Below are positions 5,961-52,241 of a DNA stretch of 64,000 bases, piece after piece. The notes under the pieces were generated by a model. The model had not been told where the DNA came from and did no database searches. It saw nothing but the letters and a program-made list of their open reading frames with translations. The number at the start of each line of letters is the position of its first letter. Position 1 is the stretch's first letter. Source of the stretch: Longimicrobiales bacterium (lineage in GTDB: Bacteria; Gemmatimonadota; Gemmatimonadetes; Longimicrobiales; Gaopeijiaceae); assembly GCA_965226375.1 (NCBI GenBank), contig CBDDCX010000006.1, positions 480,001 to 544,000 of the forward strand, in the 5' to 3' direction. The translations under genes and the position numbers were made by a program.

Positions 5961-7202
5961 ATGCGCTTCATTCACGCCGCCGACATACACCTCGACACCG
6001 CATTCTCGAGCCGCTCGGACACGGTCCGGGCACGTTTGCGCGATGCGTCACGCGTCGCCTTCCGGCGGCTCGTCGATCTGGCCCTGGCAGAGGAAGTAAA
6101 CGCGGTCCTCCTGGCCGGTGACCTTTTCGACGACGAACGGCTCTCGTTCCAGACCGAGCGCTTTCTCCTGGAACAACTCCACCGCCTCGAGCAGGCTGGC
6201 GTACCCGTAGTGTACGCAACCGGAAACCACGATCCGGGCCGTGAGGGACGTCGATCGGCAGATCTCGCGTGGCCCGACAACGTGACAGTGGCCGGGAGAC
6301 GAGAAGCTGTGCGCATTACCGTCGAGAACCCCGAAGGCGAAGCTCTGGGCGTGGTAACGGCCGCAGGGCACGAAACCGCCGCGGAAACGGAGGACCTGTC
6401 GGAGACCTTCCCGACCCCAGAGGGACGCCTCCCGGAGGTGGCCGTTCTGCACACCCAGGTCGTGGACTCTCCCGGAGCCACAGATCACGCGCGATACGCC
6501 CCTTCCCACCTCGACGCCTTGAAGGGCGCCGGCTTCGACTATTGGGCGTTGGGGCACGTGCACAAGCGTGCCTGCCTCTGCGAACATCCCGGCATCTACT
6601 ACCCCGGCAATCTCCAGGGACGCACCCATGGCGAACGTGGAGCCAAGGGCTGCCTACTCGTGGAACTCTCACCGGGCGCAGCCCCGACCGTGGAGTTCAA
6701 GGAGTTGGCCCCGATTCGATGGGAGGATGTAGAGGTTCGGGATCCCACCGACGCTGCCTCGCTCGATGCTCTCGTGCGCACGGTAGCCTCCCGGTGGGAC
6801 GAGGCAGTGAATGGAAACGGGATATCCGGGTGGATCGCCCGCATAAGCATCTCCGGAGCGACGCCTCTCTGGAGGGAGCTGTCGCGTGAAGAGGATCAGG
6901 AGCACTTGCGAGAGGAACTGGCTCATCGACTCGAGTTGCTCGACGTGACGCTCCACATCGGCAGCGTACATCCGGAGATTTCGGTCGAGGAACACGCAGC
7001 CCGAGAGGATGTGCTGGGGCAGGTACTGCAACTGGTGGCTTCGGTTCGAGCCGGGGATGCCACCGTGGCCGATCTGCGACCCGAACTCCTTCTTGGTCTG
7101 GACGGACAGGATCATCTGGACGAGTACGTCCGGACCCTCCTGCATTCAGCTGAAGAAGAAGTCCTGTCACGTATGCTCAAAAACGTGGTCGAGCAGGGAT
7201 GA
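5961..7202 (+). CDS. Mre11/SbcD-type metallophosphoesterase, YhaO-like DNA repair exonuclease
   Basis: Intact motifs ADIHLD, AGDLFD, GNHD, VLH, ALGHVH and YPGNLQGR; ATGA overlap with the downstream ATPase. Confidence 0.88.
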   Translation: MRFIHAADIHLDTAFSSRSDTVRARLRDASRVAFRRLVDLALAEEVNAVLLAGDLFDDERLSFQTERFLLEQLHRLEQAGVPVVYATGNHDPGREGRRSADLAWPDNVTVAGRREAVRITVENPEGEALGVVTAAGHETAAETEDLSETFPTPEGRLPEVAVLHTQVVDSPGATDHARYAPSHLDALKGAGFDYWALGHVHKRACLCEHPGIYYPGNLQGRTHGERGAKGCLLVELSPGAAPTVEFKELAPIRWEDVEVRDPTDAASLDALVRTVASRWDEAVNGNGISGWIARISISGATPLWRELSREEDQEHLREELAHRLELLDVTLHIGSVHPEISVEEHAAREDVLGQVLQLVASVRAGDATVADLRPELLLGLDGQDHLDEYVRTLLHSAEEEVLSRMLKNVVEQG

Positions 7203-9880
7203 AGCTCGAGCGTATTCGCGCACGTGCGTTCGGCGGCCTGGAGGCGTTCGATTCGGGGGAAGAACCGCTCTCGGACCTGGCCGTGGTCGTGGGGCCCAAC
7301 GAGTCGGGCAAGACTACCTTCTTCCACCTGCTGGCATCGATCATCTACGGGCTCTACCCGACCTCCCGGGATCTGCACCCCTACGCGCCCTGGAGCGGAC
7401 ACGACCTCGATGTAGAAGCCGACCTGCGCCTGGATGATGACGAATTGTGGAGCGTCCGGAGACGTCTTCTCGCCTCCCCTTCCGGCCAACTCACCCGAGG
7501 CGAACATGAAAAAGCCCTCCGCAATGAAACCCTGCCCTGTGCGACGCACGTCACGCGCGGAGTCTTCCATCAGGTGTTCGCCCTGACCCACACGGAAATA
7601 TCCACCCTCGAGTCTGAGGCCTGGTCGGACATACAGGACCGGCTCATCGGCGCGATGGGTGCACGCGACCTGGTCACTGCACGCTCTGCGGCAGAGGTAC
7701 TCGAGCTGGAAGCTCGCGGGCTGTGGCGACCCGACCGCAGGGGCAAACAGGAGATCCGCCAGTTGCGGGAGCGCATCCATACTGCTTCGGCGAGGCGCCG
7801 CCAAGCGTTGGAAACCGATCGACTGCTCAGAGGCTCGATGGGTGCCCTGGAGCAAGTCAGGCACGATCTGAAAGAGGCCAAACTCGTTCGTGAGCAGCAA
7901 AGGCTCCTCATCGAGCGTACGACCACGCTCCTCCCCGCCCGGAAGCTGCTCGATCGCGCGGCCGAGCTCGACGAGGAGGCCGGCCCACTCCGGGCGTTAG
8001 ACGAGATTCCCCCGGATCCCGTCGCTGCGCACGGCCGCCTCGTCGCCGAAGTGGCCAAGCTCCGCGAACGTCTTGCCCGCAACTGCGAGGAATCCAAGGT
8101 TCCCCGCGAGCGCATGGACACCTTCGGATCCGCCGGAGCTCGCATTCTCGAGGCCCGCGTGGACATCGAGGATCTCGGGGCGGAGGTGGCCGGCCTGAAA
8201 CCGGCTCGTGCCCGCCTCGGCTCCCTAGAACGCGAAATCCAGGACCATCGTCGTCACACCGGTGCGTCCCTGAACGATCTGTTCACGCGAATCCTCACCC
8301 CAGACGAAGAGAGGGCCCTGAGGCGCATCGCGCCGAAGCAGCTCCACGAGCGCATCAGAAGCGCGGTCAGAGCAAGGGATCGTCAGCGGCAACAGGAAAT
8401 TCGCTCCACGCTCCGCGGGGAGACCCCGAGACCTTCAGCCCTAACCCTACTGATCGGCGTGACGTCGGGGCTGGCAGCAGCGGCCCTTTGGTTCACAGAC
8501 GGTGCGGAGCCCTGGCCCAAGGTAGTCGGGGCAATTCTGGCTCTGGCATCGGTCACGCTGCTCACACGGTGGTGGACCATGCGTGAGGTGTTCGTGCGCA
8601 GCGGAGGGGATGATTCGTCCGATTCGCCACCGGAGGGCGGGCCCGGCGATTCGGAGACCGTTGTGTCGGCCGTTACGGCTCTCCGTGGGATTCTTGGTGA
8701 TCTGCCGATCCGTGACGAGGTGGTCGAGGAGCCCGGTCCAGAGATGGGCGCCGCGGTTGTACGGCTCCAGGAGCTGTTGGACGACCTCGACGCTCGAGCT
8801 GTGGAAGCCGAAGAGCTGAGAGGGGCCTTTGCGAGCGCGGGCGAACGCATCGCCACCGTCGGTAGTGGACTGGAGATCGATCTTCCCTCGGATGACACGG
8901 CCGCCGTTCATGTGCTGCAAACCGAGCTTCGTGATGCGGGACGAGCAGAGGAGGTATCCACCTTCGCACGTCGCACGCTGGAAGGTCTGGAACGAGCCCA
9001 ACAAGAGATCCGACATGAGCTCGACGAGCGAACTCGAGAACTCGACCTTCTCGAGGACGCGGTCCGAAAGCTGGGCGAAGGCGACGTCACCTCAGGCTTG
9101 GAGGCGGCCGGGCGAAGGCAGCGCGCCAGGGCGCGCGCGGAGCAGATCCGTGAGGACCTGACCCGCTCCCATCCCGATCTGGAAGAGTTGACCTCTGGAC
9201 TCGACCAACTCGAGAGCGCCGAAGGCCGCCCCATTGGCGACGACGAATTGGCGGCTACGCGGCTCGCCCATGAGGAGCAGTCTGAACACATAGAGGAGCT
9301 TACGGGACGAGTGAAAGAACTCGAGCACGACTGCGCCCACGCCGGGGAGCAAACCACGGCTGACCAGATCGACGGGGAGATCGGGGCGCTGGAAGCCGAT
9401 CTCGGCTACCTGGAGGGCGAGCACGACCGCAAGCTTGTGCTGGCCCACCTCATCCGGGATGCCGATCGCCGATTTCGTGAGGAGCACCAGCCCGATGTGG
9501 TGCGGAAGGCCTCGGACTACCTGAAGACCATCACGAGCGGCCGATACGAGCTCATTACCGTGGGCGACACGGGCAGCTTCCACGTGCGCGGGCCCGGCTC
9601 CGATGGACCCGTGGAGGCGTCGAGCCTCTCCACAGGAGCCCGGGAGCAGCTGTATATGGCGATTCGACTCGCGGTCATGAGTCACCTCGACGAAGAAAGG
9701 GAGAGTCTGCCCGTATTCGTGGACGAAGCCTTCGTTAACTGGGACGCAAGGCGGCGCGCCAGTGCCTTCGCGCTTCTGCGCGAGATCTCGACCACCCGTC
9801 AGGTGTTCGTCATGACCTGTCACGGCCCGTGGGCCGACGAGTTGGTCGCACACGGTGCTCAAAGAATCGAGCTGCCGTGA
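7199..9880 (+). CDS. YhaN-like Rad50/SMC-type ATPase with coiled coil and two central hydrophobic segments
   Basis: Walker A GPNESGKTT, signature LSTGAREQL, Walker B VFVDEAFVNWD, H-loop MTCH; hydrophobic pair near the middle. Confidence 0.85.
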   Translation: MKLERIRARAFGGLEAFDSGEEPLSDLAVVVGPNESGKTTFFHLLASIIYGLYPTSRDLHPYAPWSGHDLDVEADLRLDDDELWSVRRRLLASPSGQLTRGEHEKALRNETLPCATHVTRGVFHQVFALTHTEISTLESEAWSDIQDRLIGAMGARDLVTARSAAEVLELEARGLWRPDRRGKQEIRQLRERIHTASARRRQALETDRLLRGSMGALEQVRHDLKEAKLVREQQRLLIERTTTLLPARKLLDRAAELDEEAGPLRALDEIPPDPVAAHGRLVAEVAKLRERLARNCEESKVPRERMDTFGSAGARILEARVDIEDLGAEVAGLKPARARLGSLEREIQDHRRHTGASLNDLFTRILTPDEERALRRIAPKQLHERIRSAVRARDRQRQQEIRSTLRGETPRPSALTLLIGVTSGLAAAALWFTDGAEPWPKVVGAILALASVTLLTRWWTMREVFVRSGGDDSSDSPPEGGPGDSETVVSAVTALRGILGDLPIRDEVVEEPGPEMGAAVVRLQELLDDLDARAVEAEELRGAFASAGERIATVGSGLEIDLPSDDTAAVHVLQTELRDAGRAEEVSTFARRTLEGLERAQQEIRHELDERTRELDLLEDAVRKLGEGDVTSGLEAAGRRQRARARAEQIREDLTRSHPDLEELTSGLDQLESAEGRPIGDDELAATRLAHEEQSEHIEELTGRVKELEHDCAHAGEQTTADQIDGEIGALEADLGYLEGEHDRKLVLAHLIRDADRRFREEHQPDVVRKASDYLKTITSGRYELITVGDTGSFHVRGPGSDGPVEASSLSTGAREQLYMAIRLAVMSHLDEERESLPVFVDEAFVNWDARRRASAFALLREISTTRQVFVMTCHGPWADELVAHGAQRIELP

Positions 9881-47294: not shown

Positions 47295-47897
47295 TTGGAA
47301 GCGCACTCACGATCGAGCGGGACCACGGCCTCTGATCCGCCTCCGGGCCACAGTTTCGAGGCGGAGATGATTCTGCAGATCGTGCAGACCGTCGACCGCT
47401 GGTACGTCGGCGTGCAGGACGTGGCCCGGTCGGTCGGCATTCTCGGTTCGGGACGGGAGTCGATCCAGGAGTCAGAGGAGGACGGTCTTCGGTACGCCGA
47501 ATTTCCGGACCTCGAGGACGAGGGTTGGCCGGGCTTCCGTATGGTACTTCCCCCCGAGGCCGCGTTCAGTCACGCGACGTCCGGCGTTTTCTACAGGGGC
47601 GCCCACTATCGCACGGACTTGGTGCGCGAAGAGCTCGTCGTGAGGTACAAGGCGGCCTTGGCAGATGCCGGACTCCGCTATCAATCCCGTGACGGCCCTA
47701 AGGATGACTTTCTTCGGACAGGGGACTTGGGTGGCGACGTCAGAATCCGTATCACCCGGAGCCGACGAGGGTGCACCACTGTCTCCACCGGACAGTATCG
47801 AGACCGTGAGAGGGTCGAAGCCGCCATCCGCGAGGCGGCCGAGCGAATGAAATCGGGTGGGACCGACACCGACCCGAGGGAATCAATGGACGCGTAG
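47295..47897 (+). CDS. Hypothetical protein
   Basis: Best-fitting ORF for the gap; no recognised motif and start uncertain. Confidence 0.45.
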   Translation: MEAHSRSSGTTASDPPPGHSFEAEMILQIVQTVDRWYVGVQDVARSVGILGSGRESIQESEEDGLRYAEFPDLEDEGWPGFRMVLPPEAAFSHATSGVFYRGAHYRTDLVREELVVRYKAALADAGLRYQSRDGPKDDFLRTGDLGGDVRIRITRSRRGCTTVSTGQYRDRERVEAAIREAAERMKSGGTDTDPRESMDA

Positions 47898-49301
47898 CTT
47901 TCCCACGCCGCTACTTCGGACACGCGTCTGGGGAGCGCCTGCCCGGTCCACACGCAGATCCACGATCCAATCGAACGATTCCGGAATCGTATCCAGAATC
48001 TCGCCCCGGCAGAAGAGAAGGATCTTCGGGACGCGAGGCATCATGCCCCTGAGGAGCCCGACGGCCCGGACCTTGGCCTCAGGCTCGAGACGGTCGAATG
48101 TGTCCCCGAGGAGCACTTCTTCAAACTGAATGCCCTGCGCGCCCCCGAGATGGATCAGCGCCAAGCGGAGAGCGAACAGATAGGCAGCCACCTCTTCGTC
48201 GGACTGCAGCCGTCTCTCTCCCTCGTCCCGAATCACCGTCGGCTCTCCGTCTCCGGTGAGTCCCACGCCCAGAACGCCACCGCTAGTCAGGCGATTCAGG
48301 TAACGGCCGGTCCGGGTCGCCAGCTTATCCCGGGCGTCGGAGAGCAACTCTGCTCGCAGAGCCTCCAGGGCCCTGCGACGCCGATCGACTCCTTCATCCT
48401 CGCTGGTGGTTGCGTGGTCCTCGACCCGCGCCGACTTGCGCCGGTCCCTCGAGGTGCCGGCCGCCCGAACGGCAGCCAGCGTATCCTCGGCCTCCGCAAG
48501 CTCCGGCAGCCGCGCACGGAGACGCTCTACCTCTTCCGCGCATTCTTCGATGGTGGCCTGAAGCCGGATCGCCTTCCCCTCCAGGTCTTGAAGGTGAATG
48601 GGCTTGAAGTCCAACTGCTCCCGACGACGCTTCCACCAACTGCCGTCCTGAACCACCGACTCCCACTCTTCACCGAGAACCGCCAGGACCGACTTGAACC
48701 GCTCGGCTAACAAGCGATCGCAGGTAGGACACTCACTGTCCGGGCCTCCGGCCTCCATCTGCTGGAGCCGTACCTTCAATTCCCGGGCCCGGTCCCGATA
48801 GGCGAGGAGGTGCGTCTCGGCATCCTGCCTCTCACGCAGCCACTCCATGTTGGCCACCTCCATATCGCCGCTCACCTCTACGGCGTCGGCCCGCATTTCG
48901 CGGACCTCACGTTCCTTCCTCACCACGGCCTCCGGGAGCCGACGAAGCTCCTGGACCCGAGCACGAAGGTTGTCCACTCCCGAATCCATCGAGGTGTGGC
49001 TCGACCTCACCGAACTCTCTCCCTCCAGATTCGCAATTTCACTGTCCACTCCGTCCATTCCGAGCCACTGCGCCAACACTCGGACAGCGCGACGCCACGC
49101 CTGTGCAGGCTCCTTCAGACCGTGCCCGGCAACCAGCGTCGCCAAGCGCTCCTCTCCCTTCACCAGGGGGCCGGCAAGCCGTTCCAGGACTTCACTGCGG
49201 AGTGGCCCATCACCACCGACAAGCGCGGCAAGACCAGGACCCAGCCGAAAGCCCGGCCAGTCCGGATCGATCAACGTTGTACCGATATCGAGGCTGCTCA
49301 A
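47883..49301 (-). CDS. Short SbcC/Rad50-like protein with zinc hook and degenerate ATPase motifs
   Basis: Coiled coil with CPTC. The Walker A position reads LVGGDGPLRSEV, signature QSDEE, Walker B/D-loop LLGDTFDRLE and H-loop LFCR; AGGAG SD before TTG. Confidence 0.75.
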   Translation of the reverse strand: MSSLDIGTTLIDPDWPGFRLGPGLAALVGGDGPLRSEVLERLAGPLVKGEERLATLVAGHGLKEPAQAWRRAVRVLAQWLGMDGVDSEIANLEGESSVRSSHTSMDSGVDNLRARVQELRRLPEAVVRKEREVREMRADAVEVSGDMEVANMEWLRERQDAETHLLAYRDRARELKVRLQQMEAGGPDSECPTCDRLLAERFKSVLAVLGEEWESVVQDGSWWKRRREQLDFKPIHLQDLEGKAIRLQATIEECAEEVERLRARLPELAEAEDTLAAVRAAGTSRDRRKSARVEDHATTSEDEGVDRRRRALEALRAELLSDARDKLATRTGRYLNRLTSGGVLGVGLTGDGEPTVIRDEGERRLQSDEEVAAYLFALRLALIHLGGAQGIQFEEVLLGDTFDRLEPEAKVRAVGLLRGMMPRVPKILLFCRGEILDTIPESFDWIVDLRVDRAGAPQTRVRSSGVGKLRVH

Positions 49302-49356
49302 CGCTTAGTTCTCCTAGGAGCCTGTGGACCACCCACTTCAATTCTTCGATAGACCT

Positions 49357-50442
49357 CTACCATTGCGTGGCTGGCAGACAACCTTCCACCAGCCGTACCA
49401 GATCCTCGAGGCTGTCCCCATCCCCATCCTCCGCCAGGCGCTTTGCCAACCGGGACGCCAAGCGCATGGACGGCCTCTCCTCAGCAGCCTCCGCCCCTCT
49501 GGTGTGCTCATCGAGTTGGACCTCCAGGTGCAAGGCCCTGCGTCGATATTCCGGCAACAACCCCTGCAGCAAGTCCAAGCGACCCGGTGGAAGCCCCTCT
49601 ATGCGAATACGTACAATCTTCTCCTCGATTCCACCCGGGACTTCGTCGAGTACTTCCCGGACACGCTCACGGAGCCGATCCGGTCGATCGTTCTCATACG
49701 GTATCGAAGCCAAGGAGACGACGGGGCGACCGTGGACGGCGTGGAATCGAACGCGCCCCGACTCCAGCTCGCACGTCAGAAAGCCCTTCTCCTCAGCCGC
49801 TTCCTCCCACGGCGTGGATCCCACCCGCTCGAGGGATCCCGCATAGTGCACCGGCCCCCCGACCTGCCGTCGATGGTGCTCGTAACCCAGGGCTACGTAG
49901 TCCCATTCCGAGGAATCCAGTGAGATGATTGCCTCGTCCCCTCCGTCGGTGGATCCATAACCTGCGAGCACATTCCACCGTGCGTCGGGGTTGGGAGCCA
50001 CCGGTGGAGGTGGCCCCTGCAGTGTGGCCCGATGGGGAACGAGCGTCACGTTCAAGTCCAGTTGAGAGTAGTACACCGAGCGCGTCGTTCCGGTCACGGC
50101 CTCGACTGCCGCCATCGTGTCGAACGTGGCCAACGGACCCGGATCCGCCACCGGGGCAGGTGTGTCTCGGGCTCCCGCCACGAGGAGGACCGGAGCCTCC
50201 GGAAGGGCCTCTCGGAGGGCCCGGAGGCCCTGAGCGAGGGCCACCAACGCTGAATGAGGGGGTTCCGGCCGGTCGAACACATCACCCGCAAGGATGATCG
50301 CCGCCGGCTTGAGTCCTATGACCCTGTCGATGGCCTGGTGGAACGCGCGGGAAACATCCGCCTCCCGGACGTTGCGACCCTGCTCCACGTGGGCGTACGC
50401 GCGATATCCCAGATGAAGGTCCGAGAGATGGGCGATGATCAT
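49357..50442 (-). CDS. SbcD/Mre11-like metallophosphoesterase with substituted metal ligands
   Basis: SDLHLG and AGDVFD are retained; GNH is replaced by GAR, the motif IV His by LAGYG, and GHxH by GYEH; YAGSLE and EEKGF are retained. Confidence 0.82.
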   Translation of the reverse strand: MIIAHLSDLHLGYRAYAHVEQGRNVREADVSRAFHQAIDRVIGLKPAAIILAGDVFDRPEPPHSALVALAQGLRALREALPEAPVLLVAGARDTPAPVADPGPLATFDTMAAVEAVTGTTRSVYYSQLDLNVTLVPHRATLQGPPPPVAPNPDARWNVLAGYGSTDGGDEAIISLDSSEWDYVALGYEHHRRQVGGPVHYAGSLERVGSTPWEEAAEEKGFLTCELESGRVRFHAVHGRPVVSLASIPYENDRPDRLRERVREVLDEVPGGIEEKIVRIRIEGLPPGRLDLLQGLLPEYRRRALHLEVQLDEHTRGAEAAEERPSMRLASRLAKRLAEDGDGDSLEDLVRLVEGCLPATQW

Positions 50443-51134
50443 GAGCTCCCGCTCTCGAATTCAGGATCCGACGGTACTTCGGCGACGGATCCCACCTCGG
50501 TTGTCACGTCACCTTCCGACGCTGGCCCGGTTCCCAGCAGCGTGGCCATACCCTCGTCCGACACCTCCTGCAGCCTCTCCAGAATCGAACCCTGCAGCAG
50601 AGCGGTGCCAGACAGCACGATGAGAAAGAAGAGCAACAAAGAGGGGGCACCGAGGCGCGACAGCCCGCTCGACCCGGCCATCAGAACCCCGAGAGCGGCA
50701 CCCAAAAACGCGAACGCGCCTGAGCTGTTTCGCCCGACAGTCGTCGCGACCGTAGATATCGCCGCCAGCAGACGACCACAAGCGTACAGTGGCAAGGCTC
50801 CCAACAAGGCCAAACCGAACGCTTGCGTGCGAGCCACGGCCCCGAACCCTTCCCCAAACGTCCAGGCGACCGTAAAGGCCGACGCGGCCAAGAAGGCAAC
50901 GAGAACGGACAGCCATCGCTGCCGGAGTACTCTGACCACCCTCGGCCAATCCTCCCCCACCGGGGGGCTGGCAAGTCCCACGCCAAGTGACACCAGCTCC
51001 ACCGCCACGATCAGCGTCAACGATCTGAGCATTCCTTCGCCCGAATACAGTAGGAGAGCCACGGCCACAGCCGCCGCTGTGGCCGCAGCCGCTCCCACCA
51101 CGAAAGAAGGCACCCAAACCAGGCGGGCCCTCAA
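50439..51134 (-). CDS. Hypothetical ~6-TM membrane protein coupled to the sbcD-like gene
   Basis: Multiple hydrophobic helices and an acidic tail; its stop overlaps the next ATG (ATGA). Loosely resembles the membrane half of fused spermidine synthases (inference). Confidence 0.65.
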   Translation of the reverse strand: MRARLVWVPSFVVGAAAATAAAVAVALLLYSGEGMLRSLTLIVAVELVSLGVGLASPPVGEDWPRVVRVLRQRWLSVLVAFLAASAFTVAWTFGEGFGAVARTQAFGLALLGALPLYACGRLLAAISTVATTVGRNSSGAFAFLGAALGVLMAGSSGLSRLGAPSLLLFFLIVLSGTALLQGSILERLQEVSDEGMATLLGTGPASEGDVTTEVGSVAEVPSDPEFESGSS

Positions 51135-51230
51135 CGTGTGGCCGTATTCCGTAAAGCGACCTCGTCCGGGGCCGGCCTGTGGTAAGGCGACATCTTTGAT
51201 TTCCCCCAGGGGCCGGGATAGTTTTTCCGC

Positions 51231-52241
51231 ATGGTCAAAGGCCTTCAGAGGGTCCCGTTGCTCGGGATTGTAATGGTCGCTTTGGGATGCGACAACGTGG
51301 AGTGGGGAGGGATCGACGTGGCCCTGAGAGCTCCTTCGGAGCCGACGATCATGGAGACCTCCGCTCCGTCAGTCGACACCACTACCGCACGCACGGACAC
51401 CACGGCCGCAGAATCCGTTCTCTTTGTCGGCCGCCGGGTTGGACCTGAAGCATGGTTGGTGCCTGTGGCTGAGCTACATACCGATGGGCTGCGGCCGCTC
51501 CCCGGAGATGGGTCGGAACAAGAGGTCCAGGCGTTCGCCGAGCGGTATTTCGCACCCGGTGCGACCTTTACTCTCTTCTCCGAAGGGGTGCGCGTGGGCA
51601 CTCTCACGGCAACCGGATACGGCACGGACACCCCTTACTGCGGGGCCAGACCGCAGGTCACCGGTCCCATCGAGCTGGTGCCGAGCGCCGCTGCCACCAC
51701 CACCTTCCTCGCCGTTCCCGACCAAATCGCAGCGACGGTGCCGTACGACGACTATGCGCCCGTGCAGCAAACCCGCGACCTCAGGGTCACTTCGCTCAAC
51801 ATGATGAGGGCGCTCCTACCCACTCTCGGCTCTCCATGGCCCGCATCCGTCCTCGAGATCCGACGGGATATTCAGGTCTTTCGAAGTAGCCCCGACGCGA
51901 ACCCCACGGTCGTCGCGACCTTCGTGTACGACGACTCTCTTCAGGTGGGGCCCGGGTCCGCCAGCGCCTACTCGGTATTCCTCGTAGCCTCCGACCCCGA
52001 CGGCGGAGGGTATCAGACCACGTACGTCGATCACCGGGTATGGAGCCAGCACGGTAAGGGTGCTGCGCGTTATTTCGAGCGGATGGACGTGGACGGCGAC
52101 GGCACACCAGAGCTCGTTCTGGAAGTCTTGGGCGAGAGATCGATCTGGATCTCTGTCTTGAAGCGAAGCGATGACGGCTGGACCGAGCTGTACCGAGACC
52201 CTTGCGGCCTTCCGGCGCCCCCAGGCTCCGGGGCTCCGTGA
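51231..52241 (+). CDS. Hypothetical lipoprotein with DxDGDG Ca-binding-like motif
   Basis: Lipobox VALGC, Thr-rich linker and DVDGDGTPELVL. Confidence 0.7.
   Translation: MVKGLQRVPLLGIVMVALGCDNVEWGGIDVALRAPSEPTIMETSAPSVDTTTARTDTTAAESVLFVGRRVGPEAWLVPVAELHTDGLRPLPGDGSEQEVQAFAERYFAPGATFTLFSEGVRVGTLTATGYGTDTPYCGARPQVTGPIELVPSAAATTTFLAVPDQIAATVPYDDYAPVQQTRDLRVTSLNMMRALLPTLGSPWPASVLEIRRDIQVFRSSPDANPTVVATFVYDDSLQVGPGSASAYSVFLVASDPDGGGYQTTYVDHRVWSQHGKGAARYFERMDVDGDGTPELVLEVLGERSIWISVLKRSDDGWTELYRDPCGLPAPPGSGAP

Follow-up and report, generated by a model that had tools for sequence, protein, structure and literature searches.

SbcCD orthologues stripped of their ATPase motifs and half of the nuclease metal site, and a hook-only derivative, in one family of Gemmatimonadota

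The closest described relatives of the genes reported here are the SbcCD (Mre11–Rad50) complex, the Lamassu defence system and the SbcEF (YhaN–YhaO) pair of Bacillus subtilis. In the canonical complex, according to passages of PMC6567933, end binding, tethering and signalling need an ATP-bound head, and part of PMC5435944 reports that human Rad50 with a mutated Walker A Lys or Walker B Asp has no ATPase activity. The Mre11–Rad50 hook is presented in an excerpt of PMC6969161 as a dimerisation clasp that the MukB hinge can replace. Lamassu (LmuABC), as set out in sections of PMC12663957, is also derived from SbcCD and has shortened coiled coils. Its Walker motifs are retained, the nuclease domain is gone, an effector has been added, and the genes occur in defensive neighbourhoods. 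SbcEF is a second SbcC/SbcD-like pair. Vps29 and the DNA polymerase B subunits are inactive calcineurin-like phosphoesterase scaffolds in which the fold was kept after metal ligands were lost; they are eukaryotic and not paired with Rad50, and are likened here by description only. We analysed an SbcCD-derived gene pair, D and C, and its neighbour M in a window of 64,000 nucleotides from a Longimicrobiales bacterium of the Gaopeijiaceae (assembly GCA_965226375.1, contig CBDDCX010000006.1, positions 480,001 to 544,000). By descent the pair is SbcCD; judged by its catalytic motifs it is not a working member, and it is not Lamassu. M, D and C are three stop-free open reading frames (ORFs), read in one direction:

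50439..51134, minus strand: M, 231 aa, the membrane domain of a fused MFS (major facilitator superfamily)/spermidine-synthase-like gene without its enzyme domain; an ancestral but not obligate neighbour
49357..50442, minus strand: D, 361 aa, a pseudo-SbcD/Mre11 with predicted Mre11 fold, capping domain and C-terminal helix-loop-helix
47883..49301, minus strand: C, 472 aa, a pseudo-SbcC/Rad50 with every ABC motif altered and short arms

Intact Gemmatimonadota SbcD (~385 aa) and SbcC (800–835 aa) are orthologous to the pair, at the same locus and in the same gene order. In the two sister families this position is occupied by intact sbcD and by an sbcC of 800–814 aa, likewise intact, and an orthologue was found in 73 of 74 and 31 of 31 genomes of other families of the phylum. 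All 20 SbcC proteins fetched from those other families have Walker A, signature-like, Walker B and H-loop motifs. Because of this synteny and the intact motifs outside the family, we take the intact form to be ancestral and the window pair to be the orthologue itself, descended, by synteny and tree, from a tandem sbcD–sbcC. We surveyed 200 genomes of the source family (85–100% complete; kin are not independent) and found C in 170 and D in 168, including genomes of 1.8–2.4 Mb. The degenerate pair lies nearly always at one locus, syntenic among housekeeping genes, and its frames are intact across 60 of 66 genera. In a quick tree that left out eight near-duplicate or cut rows, the 44 degenerate family SbcD proteins form one side of a branch (Shimodaira–Hasegawa-like approximate likelihood ratio test, SH-aLRT, 99); on this tree the degenerate form is shown to have a single origin in the family. 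A profile search of the window's own genome found no canonical sbcC: the best sbcC-family match was a 1179-aa frame that aligned to no more than profile positions 1–51, the pattern an SMC protein would give. No second hook-bearing protein was found in this genome.

In profile searches neither C nor M exceeded the cut-off of any curated family, and the matches of D to SbcD/Mre11 profiles were below their cut-offs. The model of C (predicted local distance difference test, pLDDT, 83.8; predicted template modelling score, pTM, 0.54) shows an antiparallel coiled coil that carries the hook, and a C-terminal half of Rad50 type; ahead of the arm there is no more than one strand and a pair of short helices, and most of the N-terminal head β-sheet is missing. 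We compared 42 family SbcC proteins with nine intact ones, leaving out the frameshifted protein of genome G005 and rows cut by contig ends; a few rows are poorly aligned at the N-terminal columns. The Walker A Lys is present in none of the 42 (33 have Arg), nor is the Q-loop Gln, whereas the Walker B Asp occurs in three and the H-loop His in one; all four residues are found in 9/9 intact rows. In C itself none of the Walker A, Q-loop, signature, Walker B, D-loop and H-loop motifs is preserved. The zinc hook has been kept at the apex of the coiled coil, where the model forms a hairpin, on arms about half as long as in intact orthologues:

48720..48731, minus strand: CPTC zinc hook (C191, C194); CxxC in 42 of 42 family SbcC
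48462..49004, minus strand: hook hairpin, about residues 100–280; the most conserved part and the sole part left in a hook-only clade

The predicted structure of D is a complete Mre11 fold (pLDDT 88.6), with nuclease fold and capping domain present, and its best Foldseek matches are Mre11 and SbcD. Motif counts were made on 50 family rows, one cut at each end, and 11 intact rows:

50413..50421, minus strand: D8-x-H10, retained metal ligands of motif I, 48/50 each
50281..50283, minus strand: D54, retained bridging ligand of motif II, 49/50
50167..50172, minus strand: A91-R92, replacing the Asn-His of GNHD; Asn in 0/50, Arg in 47/50
49876..49878, minus strand: H189, retained last His of motif V, 49/50, one cell being an alignment artefact of a 3'-cut row

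No family row has the catalytic His, whose place is taken by Arg in 47. The motif II His has become Asp (D57) in 48 of the 50; 19 rows retain the motif IV His and 14 the first His of motif V. Among 32 further fused D–C proteins the Asn is likewise absent (0/32) and the catalytic His occurs in two, whereas GNH is found in 11/11 sister-family rows and 17/19 rows from the wider phylum, where one locus had no row. By alignment, D8, H10, D54 and H189 make up one complete metal-ligand set and the second set is lost; we presume this assignment from the P. furiosus Mre11 structure, and found no literature passage for it. R26, R206 and R239 are invariant in the family alignment, and R92 and R278 nearly so. 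One subclade (L076–L080; genomes G080, G138, G072, G179 and G090) combines Glu91 with Arg162, a pairing that looks like a salt bridge in place of the lost metal site and that represents one event. At loci L112 and L122, the otherwise intact SbcD of another family has its motif III Asn changed to Asp or Glu.

D and C are encoded as a single ORF in 19 of the 49 family loci that carry D, which supports a partnership between them. The family pair resembles SbcCD in its Mre11 fold, CxxC hook, antiparallel coiled coil and ABC C-terminal half fold, and differs in the loss of the Walker A Lys, Q-loop, signature and H-loop from SbcC and of the second metal site and catalytic His from SbcD, in its half-length arms and frequent D–C fusion, and in the existence of a hook-only derivative. 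It is predicted from these motifs that D–C does not cut DNA in the known way. Unlike Lamassu, the window pair has a dismantled ATPase, a kept Mre11 domain and a core-gene-like locus: C has no LmuB-type Walker motifs and PADLOC matches only over the coiled coil, neither an LmuA effector nor LmuC was found at the locus, and D and M match no PADLOC family.

We estimated ratios of nonsynonymous to synonymous substitution rates (dN/dS) by the Nei–Gojobori method for the window genes against seven relatives, at dS values of 0.7–3, the larger of which are near saturation. The ratios were 0.074–0.094 for D (six estimable pairs) and 0.065–0.147 for C (seven pairs), compared with 0.078–0.091 for rsgA and 0.069–0.10 for btuC as full-length controls. 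Since D and C behave like these housekeeping neighbours, we reject simple decay. Within C, the hook arm (0.035–0.124) is more constrained than the N-terminal head remnant (0.12–0.21). Mean pairwise identity in the family compared with intact orthologues was 61% versus 45% for the hook ±45 aa and 32% versus 63% for the C-terminal head, with SbcD (50% versus 51%) as a control for depth. These alignments show a move of constraint from the head to the hook arms. All 17 invariant columns of C lie within residues 154–241, the invariant Trp, Arg and Gln residues sitting 22–47 residues from the hook cysteines. W154, Q159, R226, Q229, L230 and P234 are already present in intact orthologues, so the pattern looks like an old feature that was later tightened. 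The conserved region carries a net negative charge (mean −4 across 41 rows) and is rich in Trp and Arg, a composition more in keeping with a protein interface than with DNA.

In three genomes (G064, G079 and G114) the syntenic site beside a 336-aa gene that also adjoins the window locus holds only an ORF of ~185–200 aa made up of hook and arms, with neither D, M nor either SbcC head left there:

L070:3917-4684, plus strand: hook-only gene of G064, at the syntenic site
L071:1958-2890, minus strand: hook-only gene of G114, at the syntenic site
L072:3614-4528, plus strand: hook-only gene of G079, at the syntenic site

Elsewhere in these genomes D was not found beyond weak N-terminal matches of other phosphoesterases, and a third genome of the G079 genus gave no hook-only gene. 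Between G079 and G114 the hook-only gene has a dN/dS of 0.096 (dS 1.9), compared with ~0.29 for the neighbouring gene: the hairpin of ~190 aa is still under purifying selection. A search with a hook-only protein returned 48 matches of 110–352 aa, and 18 of the top 24, which we examined, are 185–214 aa long with a centred hook. The hook is flanked by about 90 retained residues on either side, and the shared lengths and ends of these proteins argue against random fragments. In a quick tree the 18 group as a single clade inside the family (SH-aLRT 94); two of them equal or nearly equal the G064 and G114 proteins, and several others come from short contigs. Against PDB sequences a hook-only protein gave generic coiled-coil matches only, and every cluster returned by Atlas searches was either Rad50-like or unnamed. 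The ESM Atlas holds clusters of unnamed 180–205-aa proteins, in one of which 66% of the members carry the Rad50 zinc-hook family; these hint at stand-alone hook proteins elsewhere and serve as a lead only.

We propose, with a probability of roughly 0.55, that the pair is a non-catalytic scaffold dimerised by its zinc hook, in which the hook docks a putative cytoplasmic partner and SbcD and the dead head are accessory. We favour this reading because the SbcC is predicted to lack an ATP-bound head, on which the canonical activities depend, and the hook hairpin survives in every carrier. Lamassu offers a precedent, as head-distal coiled coils of short Lamassu serve as a docking site in the sections of PMC12663957 that deal with them. 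At a little short of even odds, the Rad50/SbcC zinc-hook hairpin would have an autonomous function as a docking platform, independent of ATP, nuclease activity and DNA ends; on this joint reading, held with the same reserve, the family would offer a deletion series made by nature, which begins with intact SbcCD, passes through a pseudoenzyme dead in both partners (split or fused) and ends in a hook-only protein of 190 residues that is still under selection. DNA processing would have been handed to other enzymes, an SbcEF-like pair or, in a few genomes, an imported SbcCD, freeing the catalytic sites; a secondary, older task of the hook arms would have remained essential. Zinc-mediated dimerisation is predicted for the hook hairpin, whose hook-proximal Trp/Arg surface would likely dock the putative partner protein. 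The single-metal SbcD and dead head may form a folded accessory module that positions the hook scaffold and probably holds a phosphate-bearing ligand such as DNA, a module useful in most lineages and dispensable in one.

A motif-intact counterpart of SbcEF lies elsewhere in the window:

5961..9880, plus strand: SbcF–SbcE (YhaO–YhaN)-like pair, motifs intact, at a locus separate from the degenerate pair; so labelled from Pfam AAA_27, gene order and motifs

This pair is present in 131 of the 200 family genomes and gave no strong match (three weak) in 16 sister genomes; from this distribution it was likely gained on the family stem. In most of the family it probably took over the catalytic role. 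The B. subtilis SbcE and SbcC have overlapping repair roles, as stated in part of PMC2811018. Some genomes without the SbcEF-like pair (G012, G068, G007 and G020) carry another, imported-looking SbcCD. Replacement likely permitted the decay of the catalytic sites; it does not explain why the pair was retained.

Several observations count against the scaffold proposal. SbcD is as constrained as the housekeeping genes, so the hook would not be the whole story in most genomes. Hook-only genes with genomic context number three, from two genera, and by its tree the hook-only clade is a single evolutionary event. The pair is not essential everywhere, since it is missing from ~15% of family genomes, among them every one of the 13 in one genus. 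The hook homodimer alone could account for the conserved arm residues, and both the docking partner and its binding are putative. Nor is the handing over of DNA processing universal: C and SbcE co-occur loosely among the 200 genomes (both in 118, C only in 52, SbcE only in 13, neither in 17), and no other sbcD or sbcC was found in G105 and G074, which are 94–95% complete.

The loose co-occurrence with SbcE led us to reject an obligate partnership of the degenerate pair with SbcEF. HerA was also rejected as a partner, being found in 2 of 24 family genomes, both without the degenerate pair. A HerA-like ATPase is encoded directly upstream of intact sbcD in two sister genomes (L051:4459-6378, minus strand; G038:C6:385668-387602). 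Clusters of a herA-like gene with an other-type sbcD and sbcC lie at G007:C1:1412784-1418495, G020:C22:18604-24814 and G029:C467:57991-63198; the degenerate pair is absent from the two family genomes that carry a herA–sbcD–sbcC cluster.

M was compared with NF037959, the fused MFS/spermidine synthase family. Three sister orthologues of M pass its cut-off (95–104 bits against 40), whereas long M forms in the family reach 18–20 bits or have no match; the M of the window, a membrane domain from which the aminopropyltransferase-like domain is absent, has none. In two sister orthologues a short-chain dehydrogenase/reductase (SDR) domain stands in place of the spermidine-synthase-like domain, and the fusions of the M membrane domain to an SDR oxidoreductase are at L058:8107-9417 (minus strand) and L100:1662-2972 (plus strand). 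The M membrane domain appears from these architectures to be a swappable membrane anchor. In 8 of 10 sister-family loci M is found upstream of intact sbcD at a distance of up to 4.5 kb; none of 20 loci from other families shows this arrangement. M was found in 153 of the 200 family genomes: 132 carry both M and C, 38 only C, 21 only M and nine neither, ten C-negative genomes being scored as such because the list of positives did not contain them. In one genus all 13 genomes have M and none has C. A clean D–C deletion beside M was seen in 6/6 loci checked, in two genera, and M was absent genome-wide in 3/3 genomes tested, with positive controls in 2/2. Because M adjoined intact sbcD before the decay, and M and C were lost independently, an obligate link is not supported, and M is likely only an old neighbour of the pair. 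The predicted complex of M with D and C scored 0.00, which carries no weight either way.

The preliminary description of this locus had proposed a repurposed pseudoenzyme under selection, and that part agrees with our results: the substitutions are conserved family-wide in one clade, the motifs are lost in both partners, and dN/dS is 0.07–0.15. Its suggested coupling to the membrane protein was not supported, given the ancestral position and independent losses of M. On the idea of a regulator of a canonical SbcCD, this genome has no canonical sbcC, the pair is the family's own orthologue, and it persists in G105 and G074, where no other sbcD or sbcC was found. A DNA-end sensor is disfavoured because that function needs an ATP-bound head, as the cited passages of PMC6567933 have it, and because one branch deleted the heads and SbcD and kept the hook.

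Other explanations of the retained pair can be set against the same evidence. Were SbcD dimers to grip DNA and hook dimers to bridge two DNAs with no partner, the pair would be an ATP-independent tether or end protector; the kept Mre11 fold and capping domain, the invariant or nearly invariant basic residues, the universal hook and the D–C fusions would suit this. We give it a modest outside chance, as the hook-only protein, which has no DNA-binding head, remains under selection, and canonical tethering needs the ATP-bound head (passages of PMC6567933), whose motifs and lobe I sheet are gone here. SbcD might instead be functional in altered form, as a phosphoesterase with a single metal or as a nucleotide binder; R92 and D57 would then make up a new site, and the hook scaffold would serve the protein. 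The four ligands kept in 48–49 of 50 rows and the near-fixed R92 and D57 look like a remodelled pocket and not like drift, but the chance is slim: the Asn is gone from every row, two other His ligands vary freely (19/50 and 14/50), SbcD was deleted in the hook-only clade, and two-metal catalysis is the rule in the calcineurin-like (Mre11-type) phosphoesterase fold.

Hook chemistry permits mixed zinc dimers between hooks, and a free hook could form them with hooks of phages or mobile elements, or absorb phage inhibitors of SbcCD, as a defence decoy or poison. SbcCD was turned into a defence system in Lamassu (sections of PMC12663957), and LmuB profiles match weakly over the coiled coil. These matches are limited to coiled coil and hook, no effector gene was found at the locus, dN/dS is low where fast change would be expected, and in place of a patchy, mobile distribution the pair is single-copy, vertically inherited as one clade and syntenic with housekeeping genes in 85% of genomes (170/200), which makes a decoy quite improbable. 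A zinc buffer or metal or redox sensor, kept for a tight zinc site and not for docking, would account for an invariant CxxC that survives alone, and the Rad50 hook is said to bind zinc extremely tightly; invariant residues 22–47 positions from the cysteines, and ~90 residues kept on each side, exceed the need of a metal site, and we regard this as very unlikely. No better do we rate a membrane-coupled three-gene system in which the dead complex signals to M or is anchored by it. M does abut or overlap D in most family loci that have M, and its enzyme domain is degenerate or lost in the family, but the obligate link is already largely refuted by the sister loci, the independent retention of C and M, the clean D–C deletions and the genome-wide absences of M. 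Slow decay of a redundant gene pair is barely credible: all catalytic motifs are eroded, there are several whole losses and the C of G005 is frameshifted, against which stand dN/dS of 0.07–0.15, intact frames in 60 of 66 genera and new near-fixed residues.

The remaining features of the locus concern its layout:

49311..49315, minus strand: ribosome-binding site of C, AGGAG, 9 nt ahead of the TTG start
51231-52241, plus strand: 336-aa gene with a signal-peptide-like start, no family over cut-off, ahead of btuF/btuC-like genes

An ATGA overlap joins the end of M to the start of D, and C starts at TTG. Contigs from 3/3 public runs, one possibly the source, cover the stretch with few substitutions and zero indels, which excludes an assembly error. 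The gene order rsgA, ABC transporter genes, 336-aa gene, M, D, C, TMEM260-like gene, trpE is common from rsgA to trpE to the source family and two sister families, local losses aside; the 336-aa gene is syntenic across the order and also flanks the hook-only gene. Between M and the 336-aa gene, window 51190-51225 holds a motif conserved in many family loci, probably a sigma-70-like promoter for the divergent 336-aa gene and not for M–D–C; a promoter and terminator scan of the locus gave chance-level results. A GTTC-N7-GTTC repeat, which we take to be an SOS-type motif and which resembles repeats upstream of lexA, was not found near the locus, a weak test of SOS control. A GTTCGG-like word in direct repeats upstream of lexA at G000:C8:1757457-1757687 is a candidate operator. 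Possible frameshifts, which assembly errors could explain, break C of G005 past the hook (L045), stop D of G011 before its last helices (L035) and split M at L083. What the preliminary description had read from the letters was largely accurate: the three co-oriented stop-free genes, the ATGA overlap and the AGGAG of C were recovered, its motif quotations align to the right columns of intact orthologues, and a 472-aa SbcC with all four ABC motifs altered and the CPTC hook and coiled coil retained is as it described. The quoted SbcD changes are also correct, with the refinement that the last His of motif V is retained as H189.

What is new in this analysis is the hook-only form and the uncoupling of the pair from the membrane gene. 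No description of a degenerate SbcCD or of a hook-only form was found in the literature searched by titles and abstract openings, which covered few subscription papers. Databases name these degenerate proteins 'exonuclease SbcCD subunit', and such annotations call for caution. Mre11–Rad50 is usually understood as an ATP-gated nuclease, yet this family lost the ATPase and the two-metal nuclease and kept the genes in ~85% of genomes. The hook-only proteins are small natural constructs for asking what the hook does besides dimerising.

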